A stretch of 30,039 nucleotides of DNA, from assembly GCA_049509275.1 (NCBI GenBank), contig JBELAB010000001.1, positions 1 through 30,039 on the forward strand. Direction: 5' to 3'. The position numbers and the translations under genes are program-made. A model generated the notes under the pieces. The model had not been told where the DNA came from. It made no database searches and saw nothing but the letters and a program-made list of their open reading frames with translations. This stretch comes from Syntrophobacteraceae bacterium. GTDB taxonomy: Bacteria; Desulfobacterota; Syntrophobacteria; Syntrophobacterales; Syntrophobacteraceae. Shown here in pieces: positions 8,187-30,039 of the stretch (position 1 is its first letter; every line of letters begins with the position of its first letter).

Positions 8187-9539
8187 ATGGGCCTTACCGG
8201 GATTCAAATCTTTAAGTTGCTGCCCAAGACCAATTGTGGAGAGTGTGGGGTTCCAACCTGCCTTGCTTTTGCGATGAACCTTGCCTCGGGCAAGGCCGAA
8301 CTGGAAAAGTGCCCCTACGTGTCGGAAGAGGCCAAGGAAAAACTCGCTTCCGAATCGGCGCCTCCCATTCGGCCGCTCACAATCGGGTCCGGCGAATACG
8401 CTGTAAAAGTCGGCGGCGAAACAGTGCTTTTCAGACATGAGAAAACTTTTGTCAATCCACCGGGCTTTGCCATTCTGGTCTCAACTGATGAAGATGAGGC
8501 TTCGGTTGCCGGAAAGATCGACCGGTTCAAGAAATCGCAATTTGACCGGGTTGGACTTAAACTTCGGGCTGAGATGTTTGCGATAAAGGATGCCAACGGT
8601 GACGCAGCAAAGTTTTGCGCCTTGGCTAAGAAGATTTCTGATGGGACCGGGGTGGCGATGATTTTCATGTCCGATTCGGTTGATGTCCTTACTGCGGCCG
8701 CTGATTCATTCAAAGAAAAGAAGCCGCTGCTTTATGCGGCAACGCCGGAGAACGCCGAAGCGCTCGGAAATCTCGCCAAGGCTGCCGGGTGCCCGCTGGC
8801 GGTTAAGGGAGACGGCTCTCTGGAGAGCGTTATCGCACTTAGCGAAAAGCTGTCCGCGATGGGGCTTAAGGACATCGTCATCGACACCGGGACCCGGAAC
8901 CTCAAGAAAGCTTTCGAAGAACAGATCCTGATCCGCCGCGCCGCCCTCAAGGACAGGTACCGGCCGCTCGGGTTCCCAACGATCATCATGGCCAATGAAA
9001 TTGGTGACGGGATCATGGACGAGGCCCTTGTGGCAGCCACTTTCGTGGCCAAATACGGGGCGATAATCGTTCTGAGCGACATCCAGCCGCACGTGATTTT
9101 CCCTCTTCTTCTCGGGCGGCTCAATATCTACACCGACCCGCAACGGCCGATGACAGCCGAGCAGGGAATCTATCCGATTAACAATCCCGACGAGAACTCT
9201 CCGGTTCTCGTGACGTGCAACTTCTCGCTGACCTACTTTATCGTATCCGGTGAAATAGAGTCCAGCAGGGTGCCGTCGTGGCTCTGCGTTCAGGACACCG
9301 AGGGACTTTCGGTCATGACCGCGTGGGCCGCCGGCAAGTTCTCGGGTGAAAGCGTCGGGACCTTCATCAACAAGAGTGGAATCAAGGATAAGGTAAAACA
9401 CAAAAACCTGATCATCCCAGGGTATGCGGCCGGTATAAGCGGTGAGCTGGAAGAAGAACTCGGCGCGGGCTGGACCATCTTGGTCGGTCCAAGGGAAGCC
9501 AGCCAGATCCCCAAATTCCTCAAAAGCATGAAGGCGTAG
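8187..9539 (+). CDS. acsC: Corrinoid iron-sulfur protein large subunit (CdhE/AcsC)
   Basis: LPKTNCGECGVPTCLAFAM...CPY [4Fe-4S] motif, GGETVLFRHEKTF, IYTDPQRP, NFSLTYF, TAWAAGKF; 450 aa. Confidence 0.95.
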   Translation: MGLTGIQIFKLLPKTNCGECGVPTCLAFAMNLASGKAELEKCPYVSEEAKEKLASESAPPIRPLTIGSGEYAVKVGGETVLFRHEKTFVNPPGFAILVSTDEDEASVAGKIDRFKKSQFDRVGLKLRAEMFAIKDANGDAAKFCALAKKISDGTGVAMIFMSDSVDVLTAAADSFKEKKPLLYAATPENAEALGNLAKAAGCPLAVKGDGSLESVIALSEKLSAMGLKDIVIDTGTRNLKKAFEEQILIRRAALKDRYRPLGFPTIIMANEIGDGIMDEALVAATFVAKYGAIIVLSDIQPHVIFPLLLGRLNIYTDPQRPMTAEQGIYPINNPDENSPVLVTCNFSLTYFIVSGEIESSRVPSWLCVQDTEGLSVMTAWAAGKFSGESVGTFINKSGIKDKVKHKNLIIPGYAAGISGELEEELGAGWTILVGPREASQIPKFLKSMKA

Positions 9540-13415: not shown

Positions 13416-14351
13416 ATGAAAAACACAACTTGGCTTCGCCGCTCCATAATCTCTGTTCCTGCAAACCGCGAAAAGATGCTCACCAAAGCATTCAAACTCG
13501 ATGCTGACGTTATCATGCTGGACCTTGAAGATTCCGTTCCGGTCAACGAAAAAGAGGAGGCCCGCAAACGGGCTATCTCCACATTGAGGGAACAGGATTG
13601 GGGAGGGAAGCTCAGGTCGCTTCGCATCAATGCGATGGATACGCCGTTCGCCTACCGTGATATAATTGATATAGTTGAGGAAGCGGGCGAATATGTCGAT
13701 ACGATGGTCGTCCCAAAGGTCGATGACCCGGCGGAAATAAAAGCGATCGACTATCTTCTGACCCAGATAGAGCTTCGGATGGGCTTTAAAAGGCCCATTG
13801 GGCTTGAACCTTCAATAGAAACGGCATCAGGAATGCTAAGGGCCGGGGAGATCGCATTGAGCTCGCCGCGGGTTGAGACGCTTGTATTTGGGGTTGCCGA
13901 TTACAGCGCTTCCCTGACCATGTTGAGTAAAGGTGTCAGCGGTCACGGTGAGCAGGAGGATTTCTACCCCGGTCACAGGTTCCATTTTCCATTAAGCTAT
14001 ATGGCAATGGCGGCGAAGGCTGCGGGTCTGCCAGCTATCGACGCCCCTTATGGGGACTACAAAGACCCCGAAGGTCTGAGGCGTTCATGCCTTATGAGCG
14101 CCGCCCTGGGGTACGACGGCAAATGGGTGATTCACCCGGATCAGGTTGCAATTGTAAATGAAGTCTATTCTCCTTCTGAGCAAGACTTCCAACGTTCGGC
14201 CAGGATCCTTGAGGCCTATGAACAGGCTCGGGCGGCCGGGGTGGGATCGCTCGCCCTGGATGGGAAAATGGTCGATGCCGCGTCCATACGCGTCGCTCGG
14301 GTGATTTATGCTCAATGGGAAGCGATGAACAGGCGTTCGACCAGGCCCTGA
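13416..14351 (+). CDS. CitE/HpcH-family CoA-ester lyase (malyl-CoA lyase-like)
   Basis: RRS..SVP, LDLEDSV, RIN, VPKV, IET, FGVADY, GKWVIHPDQV, DGKMVD motifs; 311 aa. Substrate cannot be set from sequence alone. Confidence 0.85.
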   Translation: MKNTTWLRRSIISVPANREKMLTKAFKLDADVIMLDLEDSVPVNEKEEARKRAISTLREQDWGGKLRSLRINAMDTPFAYRDIIDIVEEAGEYVDTMVVPKVDDPAEIKAIDYLLTQIELRMGFKRPIGLEPSIETASGMLRAGEIALSSPRVETLVFGVADYSASLTMLSKGVSGHGEQEDFYPGHRFHFPLSYMAMAAKAAGLPAIDAPYGDYKDPEGLRRSCLMSAALGYDGKWVIHPDQVAIVNEVYSPSEQDFQRSARILEAYEQARAAGVGSLALDGKMVDAASIRVARVIYAQWEAMNRRSTRP

Positions 14352-25277: not shown

Positions 25278-25814
25278 ATGAACATCAAAACCGTTCTTGA
25301 AAATCTCATCGGGTTCTTTACCGGCGAAGAGATCGATTTTGCACTGATCGGGGCATTTGCGCTGCAGGCATATGGCTATGTGCGCGCCACTCAGGACATC
25401 GACTTCGTGGTGAGGGGTGAAGGGCAGCAAAGGGTCGTTCGGTTCCTTGAATCACTCGGGTATGAAACTTTCTATCGCTCCAAAGGGTTTTCAAATCATG
25501 TTCATCCGCTCGCTAGTCTTGGCCGGGTAGATTTTGTATATCTGGAAGGAGAAACTGCCGGCAGATTATTCTCCGGGACCAAACCCATAATGATTTTCGA
25601 AGGCATTTCAGTCCCCGTGGTAAGGCCCGAACACCTGATTGCCCTTAAGATCTTTGCAATGAAGAACGACCCCGCGAGGACTTTTCGTGAAATGGCCGAT
25701 ATTGAGCAACTCCTGAACCTCACCTCGCAGAGCGTGGATATCGATGAGGTAAAGGGCTATTTTGAAAAGTACGGTCAACTGGAGAAATTCTATGAGCTTA
25801 CCGGAGGAAAGTAA
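25278..25814 (+). CDS. Pol-beta-superfamily nucleotidyltransferase (AbiEii/MenT-like putative toxin)
   Basis: LIGAFALQAYGYVRATQDIDF (G..A...G..R.T.D.D), RVDF, LIALK and distal acidic residue (EMADI); 178 aa. Confidence 0.75.
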   Translation: MNIKTVLENLIGFFTGEEIDFALIGAFALQAYGYVRATQDIDFVVRGEGQQRVVRFLESLGYETFYRSKGFSNHVHPLASLGRVDFVYLEGETAGRLFSGTKPIMIFEGISVPVVRPEHLIALKIFAMKNDPARTFREMADIEQLLNLTSQSVDIDEVKGYFEKYGQLEKFYELTGGK

Positions 25815-26010
25815 GAAATTGCTCAATAAAAAACTTCTTGATCTTGAATCAGGTCTTCCCTTGACCCGGAAAGATTTTCGAGCCATGGAGCGCTCCCGGG
25901 GACGGCATGACCTTGACCTTGCGGGCTATATAATTTGGCTGGAGGAGATCGGCGCTTTCGAAACAAGGAAAGCCGGTGCGAAAATATACGCCGAACGGTT
26001 CGAATTATAG
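25792..26010 (+). CDS. Small 72-aa protein, putative partner/antitoxin of the nucleotidyltransferase
   Basis: ATG 25792 with GGAGA SD, 23-nt overlap with the NTase 3' end; sequence ...LDLESGLPLTRKDFRAM...YIIWLEE...ERFEL. Role is inferred. Confidence 0.6.
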   Translation: MSLPEESKKLLNKKLLDLESGLPLTRKDFRAMERSRGRHDLDLAGYIIWLEEIGAFETRKAGAKIYAERFEL

Positions 26011-26213: not shown

Positions 26214-26261
26214 GCAGAACAGTGAACACTGAGCAGTAAAAATCACTACTCACTATTCACC
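26214..26261. repeat. Heptamer-repeat hairpin, copy 2 (overlaps the cytochrome c stop codon)
   Basis: Left arm GCAGAAC AGTGAAC ACTGAGC AGT; right arm ATCACT ACTCACT ATTCACC; mismatches fall mostly at 7-nt intervals. Confidence 0.7.
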
Positions 26262-26767
26262 CGCATGCTCCTCACGTAACGTACAATGGCCCAGGTTTCA
26301 TCCTTTGTAAGGGTGGCGTAGAGGGCAGGATGCCTATTGAAACCAAACCGGATTTCATAAAAGATTTCACCGTCGCTCTTGTCCTGCACATGAGAACTTC
26401 TGAGGTTCGCGGGCAGGGGGGCGAAACTTTGTCCAACCGTGCCGTTGCCGTCCAACATGGGGCCGTGACACTGTACGCAGTAGAAATGATACCTTTCCCA
26501 CCCCCATGCAACCATTTTGGAAGTGCCGTCGAGCGGGTTTACGAGCTCCATGGGGTTTGCTTCACGTTCCACCCAGATGCCTCCGTCAACCGGGATGGCC
26601 TTTTTGGGCATCTGCGGGAATTCCTCGTTGTAGGCTTGAACTGCCTCGTCGTCCCTCATCTCGGAGTAATTGCAGCCAAACAGGGTGAAGGACGCAAAGC
26701 CGAGCAGCGCAATGAACACAGCGTGGCGCATAAGCGAGTGAGTGAACGCGCTTCGGGCTGTTTTCAT
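26246..26767 (-). CDS. Monoheme cytochrome c lipoprotein (ActE-like)
   Basis: Lipobox LFGC; NP..GWERYHFYCVQCHG..DGNG.VG; DGEIFYEIRFG..HP..ETWAIVRYVR; ATGA overlap with the upstream gene (alternative start 26731). Confidence 0.85.
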   Translation of the reverse strand: MKTARSAFTHSLMRHAVFIALLGFASFTLFGCNYSEMRDDEAVQAYNEEFPQMPKKAIPVDGGIWVEREANPMELVNPLDGTSKMVAWGWERYHFYCVQCHGPMLDGNGTVGQSFAPLPANLRSSHVQDKSDGEIFYEIRFGFNRHPALYATLTKDETWAIVRYVRSMRVNSE

Positions 26768-27051
26768 TTCGGCGCCTCCATCCGTTGCATTTCCGACACC
26801 GGCCCCATGACGTGTTGAGGCTCAACCGAGGCCGCCTCAGGTCCCGGAGCGAGGCCGTTGGGTCTGGCCGGACTATAGGTGAAATAGGCGGATTGGCCCG
26901 GGATGTCGGCGACAACGCTGAAATCCCAGTCCGGAGGCCCTTTGTCACCGATGACAAAATAGATCAACAAACCCCACGCGAGAAACCCTCCCGCTATTGC
27001 CCCGATGATCGACCAGGTCTTAACCCAGCTACATTCTTCTTCTGAGTGCAT
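26764..27051 (-). CDS. Uncharacterised single-TM protein (95 aa)
   Basis: ATG 27051 with GGAG upstream; one hydrophobic helix then GDKGPPDWDFSVVADIPGQSAY; stop overlaps the next start. Confidence 0.65.
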   Translation of the reverse strand: MHSEEECSWVKTWSIIGAIAGGFLAWGLLIYFVIGDKGPPDWDFSVVADIPGQSAYFTYSPARPNGLAPGPEAASVEPQHVMGPVSEMQRMEAPK

Positions 27052-27068
27052 CTCAGGATACTCCGGTC

Positions 27069-27350
27069 TTAAAACCTGCTGCCGTTGGCCCAGACGAAAA
27101 TCAAATAGGAGAAAGCCCACGCTGCTATCAGCAGGTAAGTGTAGATGAGAAATGGACCTATAGGGTTCTTATCCGTGTGGTGTCCGCTCCCGGGTTCGCG
27201 GCCCCCTGTTTTATCGAGTTCCTGTTCGGTCCCGGCTGTGCGTCTTGTCCGGTAACCCGCCCAAGCGGCATAGACCATAATAAGAGATATCCCGCCCAGA
27301 AAGAGGGCGATCATTTCATACTGGAAATCGACCCAGACAAAGAATCGCAT
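27069..27350 (-). CDS. Two-TM protein (93 aa), possibly a heme-less CcoP N-terminal-like module
   Basis: Two hydrophobic helices; the loop ends GHHTDKNPIGPFL; tightly spaced in the operon. Confidence 0.65.
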   Translation of the reverse strand: MRFFVWVDFQYEMIALFLGGISLIMVYAAWAGYRTRRTAGTEQELDKTGGREPGSGHHTDKNPIGPFLIYTYLLIAAWAFSYLIFVWANGSRF

Positions 27351-27362
27351 GTTCGTATCCGT

Positions 27363-27629
27363 TCAATGGTGATAGAGACCAAGCGTCAATGCGGCTGCAA
27401 AGGCGGTAAAGCCTATCGCTGCTATAAAGAACAGGGCGGCAGTGTGCGCTCTGCGTTTTGAGCGGCTTACGGCTGTAATCGGCTGCGATAGAAGGTCTTT
27501 TCCAAGCGGCAGATACCTCGCGCGCTCCTGGTCCGAAAACTGCCCCGCCCGAAGCCCCCAGATGAATGCCGCAAGGCTCACGATCAGACTGATTACGACA
27601 AGAAAAAGCCATCCGGAGTAATAGATCAT
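27363..27629 (-). CDS. ccoS: cbb3 oxidase maturation protein CcoS/FixS-like, with extra C-terminal helix
   Basis: TM helix then FIWGLRAGQFSD...RYLPL, matching the FixS W...GQF.D pattern; ATGA-coupled to ccoO. Confidence 0.8.
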   Translation of the reverse strand: MIYYSGWLFLVVISLIVSLAAFIWGLRAGQFSDQERARYLPLGKDLLSQPITAVSRSKRRAHTAALFFIAAIGFTAFAAALTLGLYHH

Positions 27630-28573
27630 TTGTCCTTCACCACCGGTTCATAGGCCGCGTCGATCCCTCTGGGCTCAGCGTGGGCGTCGGTTTGCCCGAT
27701 AAACGTCACGGCCACATAATTGCCCACGTCCCAAATCTTCTCGGACTGGAGGTCCTTTTTGAAGTAAGGCATCGCTGTGCCCGTGATTCCGTTCATTATC
27801 TGGTAATAGAGTATGCCGCCGGAGATCCCCCTGTCCCTGAGTATCGTAAAATTGAGGGGCGGTGGGTAAAGATAAGGCTGGGCCGGGCCCATGCCGTCCC
27901 CCACCGGACCGTGGCAGCCGATGCAGAAACTCTGGTAAACCCTGTGCCCGCGCGCAAGGCCGGCAGCGGAGGTCAGGTAGGGGTTGGGCAGCTTTCTCCA
28001 GCCTTCCGGAACGTGGGCATGCAGCCATTCGACGTTCTTTTCGGGACCTGACTGGAAGGCTGCCGTCGTTTCGGTTTTCCAGTAATTCTGCCGGGCCATT
28101 CTTTCGTCGGCCAGTTTAAATCCGAGGCTTTGCTTGTAGGCTATGAGGGCCTTGATTTTCTCCGGGCCGAGAAACACCCAGGAAGGCATAAGTGACTCGG
28201 GCCGGGTGAACCTGGGGTTGGCGAAATGGGCCAGGTGCCAGTCGTCAGGATGCTCGCCGCCCTCCTCAGAAAGATCCGGGCCGGTTCGCTCGGTCCCTAA
28301 AAGGTGGGGCGAGTCTGCAACGTAGTCTCCGGATTGCGCTACCCTTTCGGAGCCGATGTCCCAGTCGAAGTTGCGAATGAACTGCGTATGGCAGTAGGTG
28401 CAGCCATTGTTTACATAAATTGAACGTCCTTCTTCCTCGAGCGCCGTGCGCGGCCTGAAGATGTCGGACCCCTGCTCGCTTATCGTAATCCAGGGCAGGA
28501 TCACGAACATGAAGAGCACCGGGGCGAAAATGAGCAGCCCCCCGAGAACCAGTACGGCCGGTGTCATCCTCAT
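27626..28573 (-). CDS. ccoO: cbb3 subunit II (CcoO) fused to a second cytochrome c domain (diheme)
   Basis: N-terminal TM; GRSIY..GCTYCHTQFIR, LLGTERTGPDL, WHLAH..NPR..SLMP (CcoO); then PNPY..GHRVYQSFCIGCHG..TAMPYF. Confidence 0.88.
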   Translation of the reverse strand: MRMTPAVLVLGGLLIFAPVLFMFVILPWITISEQGSDIFRPRTALEEEGRSIYVNNGCTYCHTQFIRNFDWDIGSERVAQSGDYVADSPHLLGTERTGPDLSEEGGEHPDDWHLAHFANPRFTRPESLMPSWVFLGPEKIKALIAYKQSLGFKLADERMARQNYWKTETTAAFQSGPEKNVEWLHAHVPEGWRKLPNPYLTSAAGLARGHRVYQSFCIGCHGPVGDGMGPAQPYLYPPPLNFTILRDRGISGGILYYQIMNGITGTAMPYFKKDLQSEKIWDVGNYVAVTFIGQTDAHAEPRGIDAAYEPVVKDK

Positions 28574-29964
28574 TGTGGTTCTCCCTGAAACGCTTCTCCG
28601 AATATGCTCTCGTCCTGCGCCTGCTCGCCCCGGATTGTCCTGATCACGTTATAAAGGCCGATGAAAGCCGCCCCGACGATGAGCACTCCCACAGCCGCAC
28701 GCAGTATGAAATAGATGTGGATCATGGGCAGCGTGCGGTATACGGTTGTTCCGTTAAGCCAGGCGTTCCCCTGGACGAGGCCTCCGGCCGTGAGCACCAT
28801 GAAAAAACCGGCCATGCCGAGAACGAGCAGCCAGTATTGGACGTCTGCAAGACGGCCGCTATAGAGCGGTTTTCCCGTAATCCTTGGGAGCATGTAATAT
28901 AGTCCCCCCAGTGCGATCATCCCCGAGAAGCCGAAAACCCCTATGTGAGAATGTGCGATAACCCAATTATTCAAATGAGTTACCTTCTGCACGACCGGCA
29001 GCGCCTGAATTGTTCCCTGCGTGGCGGTGAGCATATACCAGACCAGGCCGGCCGCTACGAACCTTCCGCCGATATCTGCGTGGAAAAACCCCAGTCTGCC
29101 CCGCATCGTGAGCCAGAGGTTCACCAATACGGTAAAAACGGGGATGATCATCGCGATGCTCCCGGACACGGCCATCGTCTTCAGCCAGACCGGTATGGGC
29201 GCCTGAAGAATGTGATGCGCCCCGATATGAGTGTATATGACCAAAATGGTCCAGAAGCCGACAAGCGAGAGAACGTGGCTGTACAGCGGACTGCGGGCCA
29301 CCCTCGGCACGATGTAGTAGGCTATGGCGATAGCAAGAGGGGTTAAGAAGAGCCCCACGATGCCATGCCCGTAAAACCAGGCCAGAATGGCGTCAGGCAA
29401 CCCGGTTATCGCGCCTTTCATGTTAAAGACGGCGTGTCCGAAAAAGTAGATCAGCCAGGTATATACGAGGGCCGCAAATATATACCAAGTTGAGACGTAC
29501 ATTATCTTTTCCCGCCGGTTGGCCGCAGTCTGAAGCAGGTTCATGAACATGAGCGCCATTGACAGCAAAACCCCTACGTTTGCCGGCCAAATCCATTCGG
29601 CGTACTCCCTGCCCTGGGAGTACCCGAGATCGAGCGCCACGACACCCGTAAGAATGGACAGGTTCCAGATCCACAGGGAAATCTTCCCGAGTTTTTCGCT
29701 CCAAAGCGAGGTCCGCAGCACCGACGGGAGTATGTAGTGGGCGGCGCCAAGAAGAGCTGTGCCTGCGAAACCGAAGATCATCGTGGTGGTGTGCATCGGG
29801 CGAACCCTGCTGAAAACCAGCCCGGCAATGCCTCCAAAAAGGTCCGGAATGACTAGCCCGGTGGCGGCCGTAATGCCCTCCAGGGTGGCCAGGGCAAACC
29901 AGATGGCCGAACTCAGGAAACAAAGCTTTGCGGTCCCGTTTTCTTCAACTTTTAGAAGCTGCAC
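28570..29964 (-). CDS. ccoN: cbb3-type (C-family) heme-copper oxidase subunit I, divergent
   Basis: RVRPMHT, GREYAE, WFYGH (H 29365-29367), YTHIGAHH (Y 29233-29235; HH 29212-29217), WVIAHSH (28945-28953); about 12 hydrophobic helices; GTG start with GAGGT SD. Confidence 0.9.
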   Translation of the reverse strand: MQLLKVEENGTAKLCFLSSAIWFALATLEGITAATGLVIPDLFGGIAGLVFSRVRPMHTTTMIFGFAGTALLGAAHYILPSVLRTSLWSEKLGKISLWIWNLSILTGVVALDLGYSQGREYAEWIWPANVGVLLSMALMFMNLLQTAANRREKIMYVSTWYIFAALVYTWLIYFFGHAVFNMKGAITGLPDAILAWFYGHGIVGLFLTPLAIAIAYYIVPRVARSPLYSHVLSLVGFWTILVIYTHIGAHHILQAPIPVWLKTMAVSGSIAMIIPVFTVLVNLWLTMRGRLGFFHADIGGRFVAAGLVWYMLTATQGTIQALPVVQKVTHLNNWVIAHSHIGVFGFSGMIALGGLYYMLPRITGKPLYSGRLADVQYWLLVLGMAGFFMVLTAGGLVQGNAWLNGTTVYRTLPMIHIYFILRAAVGVLIVGAAFIGLYNVIRTIRGEQAQDESIFGEAFQGEPQ

Positions 29965-30039
29965 CTGCTTATACCTCGCCGGTTCCAGACTGCTTTAATG
30001 ATGACAGCCCAAATAGCAGTCAAGCTGCGCTTTTTTCTC

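Follow-up and report, generated by a model that had tools for sequence, protein, structure and literature searches.

What supplies electrons to a cytochrome cbb3-type oxidase encoded by a bacterium that also carries dsrAB, and do the genes for that oxidase stand as a unit of their own? The question is raised by six closely spaced minus-strand genes at one end of a 30,039-nucleotide stretch of DNA from a member of the Syntrophobacteraceae (termed here the window). The original prediction took these genes to be a self-contained unit headed by ccoN, the gene for the catalytic oxidase subunit, and served by a dedicated lipoprotein cytochrome. The present analysis points elsewhere, namely, that the six genes are probably the distal half of an 11-gene operon of ~10.6 kb, ordered actB-actC-actD-actF-actA-ccoN-ccoO::cytochrome c-ccoS-g4-g5-actE, the products of which are alternative complex III (ACIII) and a divergent cbb3-type O2 reductase. 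Because the window is the entire contig C1 of a metagenome-assembled genome (83% complete, 478 contigs), sequence upstream of ccoN is missing from it. A second contig of the same genome, C51, carries actB, actC, actD, actF and the start of actA, in that order. The components of the proposed operon are as follows (aa, amino acids; TM, transmembrane):

C51, 460-3423: actB, followed by actC, actD and actF.
C51, 6606-6938: 5' part of actA, open at its 3' end.
Window, 29993-30039, minus strand: 3' end of actA (last 15 codons and stop), the rest of the gene lying on C51 and in an assembly gap of ~158 nt.
Window, 28570-29964, minus strand: ccoN, C-family (cbb3-type) haem-copper oxidase catalytic subunit I, 464 aa (PF00115, 1.3e-73).
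Window, 27626-28573, minus strand: ccoO with a C-terminal monohaem cytochrome c domain, 315 aa, haem motifs CTYCH and CIGCH (FixO, 8e-32, residues 21-146; Cytochrome_CBB3, 4.5e-15, residues 206-287).
Window, 27363-27629, minus strand: ccoS-like gene, FixS domain plus an extra C-terminal TM helix, 88 aa (TIGR00847, PF03597).
Window, 27069-27350, minus strand: g4, two-TM hairpin protein, 93 aa, with orthologues resembling PF14715 (FixP_N).
Window, 26764-27051, minus strand: g5, small single-TM protein, 95 aa from the ATG at 27051, matching no family.
Window, 26246-26767, minus strand: g6, actE-like monohaem cytochrome c lipoprotein, 173 aa, lipobox LFGC, haem motif CVQCH, matching ActE structures.

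The list of open reading frames (ORFs) confirmed all six oxidase-cluster genes at the positions originally assigned to them, and reading of the junctions confirmed three ATGA overlaps (ccoN/ccoO, ccoO/ccoS and g5/g6) and gaps of 12 nt between ccoS and g4 and 17 nt between g4 and g5. Likewise, the assignment of ccoN, ccoO::cytochrome c, ccoS and the g6 cytochrome c to their families was supported by Pfam and NCBIfam. The upstream border was another matter. The window closes with 47 nt that specify the C-terminus of ActA and its stop codon. Another gene thus comes before ccoN, and the hexamer TTGACT (30018-30023), which had been offered as a hint that ccoN leads the unit, is intragenic, lying within the 3' end of actA. 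Indeed, the window ends in the residues ...DCYLGCHH*, which match exactly the C-terminus of the 178-aa ActA of a related locus, L015, whose CcoN is 97% identical to that of the window and which shares 95% nucleotide identity over the contig-junction stretch. The actA stop codon occupies positions 29995-29993, 28 nt ahead of ccoN (30 nt in L015). C51 aligns to positions 2594-9228 of L015, and the window, once reverse-complemented, from position 9387 onward, such that the ends of the two contigs map ~158 nt apart; the sequence beyond position 30039 is, by way of L015, the remainder of actA, in this gap and on C51. In L015 itself, ccoN is preceded by genes encoding a 1057-aa molybdopterin-like/iron-sulfur (FeS) fusion protein, an NrfD protein, ActD, a 406-aa membrane protein and a 178-aa multihaem cytochrome, with intergenic spacings of -11 to +57 nt. 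From this arrangement, we infer that the 11 genes are co-transcribed. Act genes just upstream of ccoN had been set by the original prediction against its own case, and these were found both on C51 and in the relatives.

These observations bear directly on the idea that the six genes form a self-contained cbb3 variant with its own promoter and a dedicated lipoprotein cytochrome c independent of complex III, an idea that is now very improbable. The six genes are tightly coupled, and the short gap ahead of ccoN could house an internal promoter. The proposed -35 hexamer, however, falls inside actA, and a scan for sigma-70-like promoters returned two promoter-like sites, not above the level of shuffled sequences and neither of them on the minus strand. 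Moreover, act genes lie ~30 nt ahead of ccoN in every relative examined and precede it in every complete locus, while the g6 product is, as described below, a homologue of ActE. A scan for terminators returned ten terminator-like sites (4.6 expected), none at either end of the operon. The flank downstream of actE varies. In L015, positions 13432-14036 hold a small ORF and, as its partner, a gene weakly resembling a BrnT-type toxin (E 9e-4, under the Pfam cut-off), in place of which the window contains other small plus-strand ORFs (25278-26010).

The assignment of the upstream genes to ACIII is carried by each of their products. The best matches of ActB among solved structures were the corresponding ACIII chains (6lod_B, 4e-127; 6f0k_B, 1e-125), ActC belongs to the NrfD family, ActD matches PF11821 (7e-40) and ActF matches 6f0k_F (9e-38), while ActA, considered in the relative, matches 6f0k_A (1.3e-27). 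Across C51 and the relatives, the features by which ACIII is recognized are present, namely, a fused molybdopterin-like/FeS ActB, two NrfD-like subunits (ActC and ActF) and ActD; ActA begins with a TM helix and contains four CxxCH motifs and a C-terminal CxxxCH motif. In all loci examined, the genes are arranged as actB-C-D-F-A ... actE, an order different from the canonical actABCDEF. Also noted was that ActA proteins of the clade carry, right at the C-terminus, a fifth putative haem motif of the form CxxxCH (CYLGCH or CWLACH) in place of CxxCH (window 29993-30039, minus strand; L015 8895-9431).

Given that the host has dsrAB, the upstream module could instead be thought of as a Qrc-type menaquinone reductase of sulfate respiration, its proximity to the cco genes being incidental. 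QrcABCD reportedly comprises four subunits, with neither ActD nor ActF. Here, by contrast, ActD and the second NrfD-like subunit, ActF, are both encoded, and Qrc in place of ACIII was rejected for that reason. In addition, ActB is a B1-B2 fusion, all subunits find their best matches among solved ACIII chains, and linkage to the cco genes recurs in 51 of 53 loci. Thus, even though Qrc is a relative of ACIII and characteristic of sulfate reducers, according to Venceslau (2010) as cited in PMC5109826, this explanation is extremely improbable.

The sixth ACIII subunit was found at the other end of the gene block. ActE is the monohaem, lipid-anchored subunit at the end of the ACIII haem wire (PMC5928083), and no actE is present between actD and actF, such that actE has been relocated to the end of the operon. 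The product of g6, classified by Pfam and NCBIfam as a class I cytochrome c, has ActE chains as its best solved-structure matches (6f0k_E, 1.6e-11; 6lod_E, 4.6e-10; 6btm_E, 1.2e-5; 8k9e_E, 2.2e-5), as compared with a value of 0.39 for a CcoP structure. What had been taken for a dedicated lipoprotein cytochrome is therefore a homologue of the monohaem subunit of ACIII, and electrons most likely enter the oxidase from ACIII itself and not from a separate donor. The position of the distal methionine of Rhodothermus marinus ActE (..RNMPAY) is occupied by histidine in this genus (codon 26330-26332) and by glutamine, serine or threonine elsewhere in the clade, and g6 orthologues share an invariant methionine in an N-terminal 'RM' segment just past the membrane anchor. 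Because the canonical methionine is replaced and this N-terminal methionine is invariant, the sixth haem ligand may sit elsewhere in the protein. Some orthologues lack the lipobox cysteine and are apparently TM-anchored.

It could be that ACIII and the cbb3 oxidase are co-expressed yet separate, with the lipid-anchored ActE-like cytochrome serving as a membrane-tethered mobile shuttle, much like cytochrome cy. The location of the actE-like gene behind the cco genes and outside the act block is in keeping with such a role, as is the combination of a lipobox or single TM anchor with a long linker, and known ACIII-oxidase supercomplexes are weak and flexible (PMC5928083). In solved ACIII structures, however, ActE is fixed on ActA (PMC5928083), and deletion of ActA in Flavobacterium johnsoniae led to loss of ActE from the membranes (PMC8552683). 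The strict collinearity of the 11 genes and the presence of two extra small membrane proteins suit a fixed assembly at least equally well. On balance, a shuttle is unlikely, albeit an explanation to be reckoned with.

The identity of the oxidase was considered from its catalytic subunit. The best structural matches of CcoN are cbb3 CcoN chains (9g6b_A, 2e-62; 3mk7_A, 9e-61), at ~33% identity, as compared with ~1e-12 for B-family oxidase structures; in the same search of solved-structure sequences, no nitric oxide reductase (NOR) structure was matched at or below 1e-5. Alignment with 9g6b_A and 3mk7_A identified the six histidine ligands of haem b, haem b3 and CuB (H58, H200, H250, H251, H338 and H340), all of which are invariant in 22 clade members, as is Y244, the cross-link tyrosine on helix VII found in a YxxxGxHH context. 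As such, CcoN is predicted to reduce O2. One could nonetheless propose that this CcoN-like protein reduces nitric oxide or another substrate in place of O2. C-family enzymes display a side NO-reductase activity, the identity to characterized cbb3 enzymes is low, with the score far under the equivalog cut-off, and glutamine replaces a glutamate of the Pseudomonas-type enzymes. Still, because the tyrosine and the CuB ligands typical of O2 reductases are kept, such an identity is judged to be unlikely, and when the gap between the cbb3 matches (~1e-60) and the NOR structures and the presence of genes for the cbb3-specific subunits CcoO and CcoS are also considered, it becomes quite improbable.

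In a CcoN tree that included loci L014-L019 and L051-L066, the CcoN proteins of this gene block form a clade of their own with 100/100 support, separated by a long branch from the two other cbb3 types of the phylum. The anticipated distinct and conserved C-family module, with neither a dihaem CcoP nor a recognizable CcoQ, is supported. Of the other two types, the second, without nearby ACIII genes, has glutamine at the position of the FEGP glutamate, and the third has glutamate. Gln316 was accordingly rejected as a signature of the ACIII-linked block.

The CcoO::cytochrome c protein scored 151 bits against NF011054 and matched 8smr_F and 3mk7_B at ~1e-25. This fusion and the location of ccoS beside ccoN and ccoO are not unique to the block. 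The fusion also occurs in the second cbb3 type of the phylum and is already named by NF011054, and was rejected as a block signature. The genome encodes a single haem-copper oxidase and a single CcoO. At 83% completeness, the genome yielded no ccoP, ccoG or ccoH and no match to TIGR00782, and searches for ccoP in three near-complete (97%) genomes of the same genus returned sub-threshold matches only. As for CcoQ, none of the six proteins matched FixQ at E <= 0.1; in scans of orthologues one by one, a single g4 orthologue (E 0.045) and a single g5 orthologue (E 0.14) did so weakly.

The missing membrane part of CcoP may be represented by g4. FixP_N (PF14715) was the top Pfam match in eight of 12 g4 orthologues, at 16-24 bits against a cut-off of 24.9, with the best such match (E 3.7e-5, 23.8 bits) spanning the loop and second helix, and a precomputed PF14715 assignment accompanies seven of 120 listed g4 homologues. 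Because g4 orthologues resemble FixP_N, CcoP appears to be split, one of its haem domains being carried by CcoO and its hairpin encoded separately, and in g4 we probably see a homologue of the CcoP N-terminal membrane domain that stands on its own. The original prediction that CcoP functions are redistributed therefore gains support, with the c domain fused to CcoO and g4 probably providing the membrane part. That prediction recognized no full CcoP; a probable remnant of the protein can be made out in g4.

The CcoS-like protein scored above the curated cut-offs of both TIGR00847 (30.4 bits against 28.35) and PF03597 (28.6 bits against 23.1), models that cover 51 and 44 positions, respectively, and its two-helix architecture is kept across the clade. 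By contrast, neither g5 nor any of its orthologues, each scanned singly, matched anything in Pfam or NCBIfam, and a feature search of the ESM Atlas gave scores of at most 0.79, with no named family. A g5 profile search of 1.84 billion proteins retrieved 315 representatives at 50% identity, all of 54-161 aa. The homologues form 1,895 clusters at 90% identity, all annotated as 'hypothetical', and every named one comes from Desulfobacterota. An AlphaFold2 model based on 14 sequences (pLDDT, the model's per-residue confidence score, 66) contains one confident TM helix (residues 3-34) and a low-confidence tail, the latter carrying the conserved motifs VGDKGPPxWDY..V.DVPGESPY and PQHV. The g5 gene was seen in this gene block only; the three distant homologues looked up are all encoded on contigs shorter than 1 kb. 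The g5 product and the CcoS-like protein with its two helices probably serve as assembly factors or as additional membrane subunits and, together with g4, are candidate interface or assembly subunits.

The block is widely shared. Of 24 further genomes in the genus, 22 gave a match to CcoN (~20 strong, two weak and partial), and synteny of all six genes was found in each of the six loci examined, where CcoN is 77-97% identical. Among 401 genomes of the phylum, CcoN identity is bimodal, with ~36 genomes at 49-76% and ~35 at 29-35%. All 16 loci fetched from the former group present the order actB-C-D-F-A-ccoN-ccoO::c-ccoS-g4-g5-actE; in five of these, the g4 model scored nothing and a gap of fitting size was present. 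The 80 best loci in genome_contigs are nearly all from Desulfobacterota, with one binned as Anaerolineaceae, and 53 of them include sufficient flank. In 51 of these 53 Desulfobacterota loci, all 11 genes appear in identical order, the two exceptions missing only the ActB match. The conservation of neighbourhood expected for the six genes was thereby confirmed, all being collinear in the same 51 loci, and the six-gene layout far exceeds what chance would give.

Among the carriers are Syntrophobacteraceae, Desulfarculales, Syntrophorhabdaceae, Syntrophaceae, Desulfosarcinaceae, Desulfatitalea and the isolate Desulfoferrobacter suflitae DRH4 (L098). Because the g5 orthologue of locus L055 (G298:C1) is identical to a protein named in NCBI as coming from Desulfococcus, cultured carriers exist; the full 11-gene block is present in these cultured sulfate reducers (L055 and L098). 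At the same time, the block was found in none of 16 genomes of other families sampled alongside (15 belonging to the same order and one to the same class), and three families (f1, f42 and f49) each appear at two places in the ACIII-linked CcoN clade. The splitting of families in the tree and the patchy presence (22 of 24 as compared with none of 16) suggest that the block has moved horizontally as a whole among members of the phylum Desulfobacterota. The genome of the window also encodes two cytochrome bd oxidases, in addition to dsrAB.

Sequence of the block is present in many peat metagenomes. In two peat metatranscriptome libraries, contigs cover g6, g5, ccoS, ccoO and part of ccoN, with g4 covered only at its ccoS-proximal end, and bridge three gene junctions. 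Because DNA carry-over is possible, these contigs are weak evidence of expression.

Taken together, the block most likely represents a directly coupled chain from menaquinol to O2 in a dsrAB-carrying member of the Syntrophobacteraceae. Onto the observed gene content, homologies, gene order, conservation and catalytic ligands, an electron route and its direction, a supercomplex and a physiological role can be drawn by analogy with the ACIII-oxidase systems of R. marinus and F. johnsoniae (PMC5928083; PMC8552683). In such a scheme, ACIII would oxidize menaquinol at ActC, and electrons would travel by way of the ActB iron-sulfur clusters and then the five ActA haems, arriving at the monohaem ActE. 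From there, they would reach the cytochrome c domain on CcoO, then the CcoO haem c, haem b and, finally, the haem b3-CuB site of CcoN, where O2 would be reduced. The dihaem CcoP would have been split, one haem domain having been fused to CcoO and the membrane domain persisting as g4. A sulfate reducer living in peat could use the chain to respire under micro-oxic conditions or to remove O2. A bolder version can also be put forward, in which ACIII and the cbb3 oxidase form an obligate, stoichiometric supercomplex, with g4, g5 and the two-helix CcoS-like protein as the interface and a re-ligated ActE wiring the ActA haems to the CcoO-fused haem domain, the whole acting as a high-affinity, energy-conserving menaquinol oxidase of 'strictly anaerobic' sulfate reducers and syntrophs that has spread horizontally within Desulfobacterota. 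This version is possible, if rather doubtful.

Several points weigh against linking ACIII and a cbb3-type O2 reductase in one operon and one chain. The C51-C1 junction is unassembled in the genome itself, with adjacency being taken from a relative of 95% nucleotide identity. CcoN scores 261 bits against TIGR00780, where the equivalog cut-off is 583. The glutamate of the FEGP motif hydrogen-bonds the proximal histidine of haem b3 in Pseudomonas stutzeri; 21 of the 22 clade members have glutamine (Gln316) where Pseudomonas-type CcoN has this glutamate, and one has arginine. The canonical distal methionine of ActE is replaced in g6. The g4 protein of the window itself has no match in Pfam or NCBIfam, and its orthologues fall just under the FixP_N cut-off. 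Finally, a single mRNA and a physical supercomplex are both to be regarded as putative.

The occurrence of a complete and conserved quinol-to-O2 chain in dsrAB-carrying Syntrophobacteraceae and many other Desulfobacterota (Desulfococcus, Desulfoferrobacter, Desulfatitalea, Syntrophorhabdaceae and Desulfarculales) is relevant to the ways in which peat and sediment 'anaerobes' withstand or exploit pulses of O2. With g4 and g5 annotated as 'hypothetical' and CcoN scoring under the equivalog cut-offs, the oxidase may escape metabolic surveys or be misjudged in them. In a comparative study of ten genomes that included Desulfococcus multivorans, cbb3 was listed in only one acidobacterial metagenome-assembled genome (PMC9448743), and in the genome paper on D. 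multivorans the sole mention is of 'cytochrome oxidase' (PMC5109826). An ACIII-linked cbb3 oxidase may go unnoticed in routine annotation. The block, moreover, offers a defined target with cultured carriers, with its apparently split CcoP, an ActE that has been relocated and changed at its haem-ligand position, and a conserved small subunit that lacks annotation.

The placement of cbb3 genes after act genes is known in outline. Oxidase clusters frequently come after ACIII clusters, and ActE is able to pass electrons straight to the oxidase (PMC5928083). ACIII-caa3 'superoperons' have been described (PMC8407424), and ACIII is co-located with cbb3 genes in Methylacidiphilum (PMC6688271); both PMC5928083 and PMC8407424 credit ACIII-cbb3 co-location to Refojo et al. 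(2010). The act clusters of Pelobacter and Geobacter lack actE (PMC8552683), and the legend of Fig. S8 in PMC2330069 refers to 'cbb3 clusters syntenous with anaerobic organisms', with FeS, nrfD and cytochrome genes among their members. In the literature searched, no description was found of the separate CcoN clade, a free-standing FixP_N-like protein, the g5 family or the altered ActE ligand position, and neither PDB sequences nor that literature yielded a structure or enzymology of an ACIII-cbb3 assembly.

Set against these systems, the block resembles R. marinus ACIII-caa3 (6F0K), F. johnsoniae ACIII-aa3 (6BTM) and Methylacidiphilum ACIII-cbb3 in that terminal oxidase genes directly follow the ACIII genes, in that ActA, ActB, ActC, ActD, ActE and ActF are all recognizable and in that the ActA/ActE haem wire would be expected to feed the oxidase without a soluble carrier. 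It differs from the R. marinus and F. johnsoniae systems in that the oxidase is of the C-family and not the A-family, from the actABCDEF order in running actB-C-D-F-A with actE behind the cco genes, and from known ACIII in its CxxxCH as the last ActA haem motif and its replaced canonical ActE methionine. Compared with canonical CcoNOQP/ccoGHIS systems (P. stutzeri, 3MK7 and 5DJQ; Rhodobacter capsulatus, 6XKW), the block retains the haem and CuB ligands, the helix-VII tyrosine, CcoO as monohaem subunit and a CcoS homologue. It departs from them in its ~33% identical CcoN of a separate clade, its glutamine in place of the FEGP glutamate, its want of a dihaem CcoP, with the c domain on CcoO and the FixP_N-like hairpin as a gene of its own, and its CcoS with an extra helix placed between structural genes; nor were CcoQ, CcoG or CcoH found in this 83%-complete genome. 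Also comparable are NF011054 ('putative bifunctional cbb3-type cytochrome c oxidase subunit II/cytochrome c') and the glutamine-type Desulfobacterota clusters (L158, L159, L161-L163, L166 and L167), which share the ~300-aa CcoO::c fusion and the CcoN glutamine. These clusters, however, are without act genes, g4 and g5, have ccoS ~5 kb downstream and encode a CcoN only 30-35% identical to that of the block described here, in which the oxidase genes directly follow those of ACIII.

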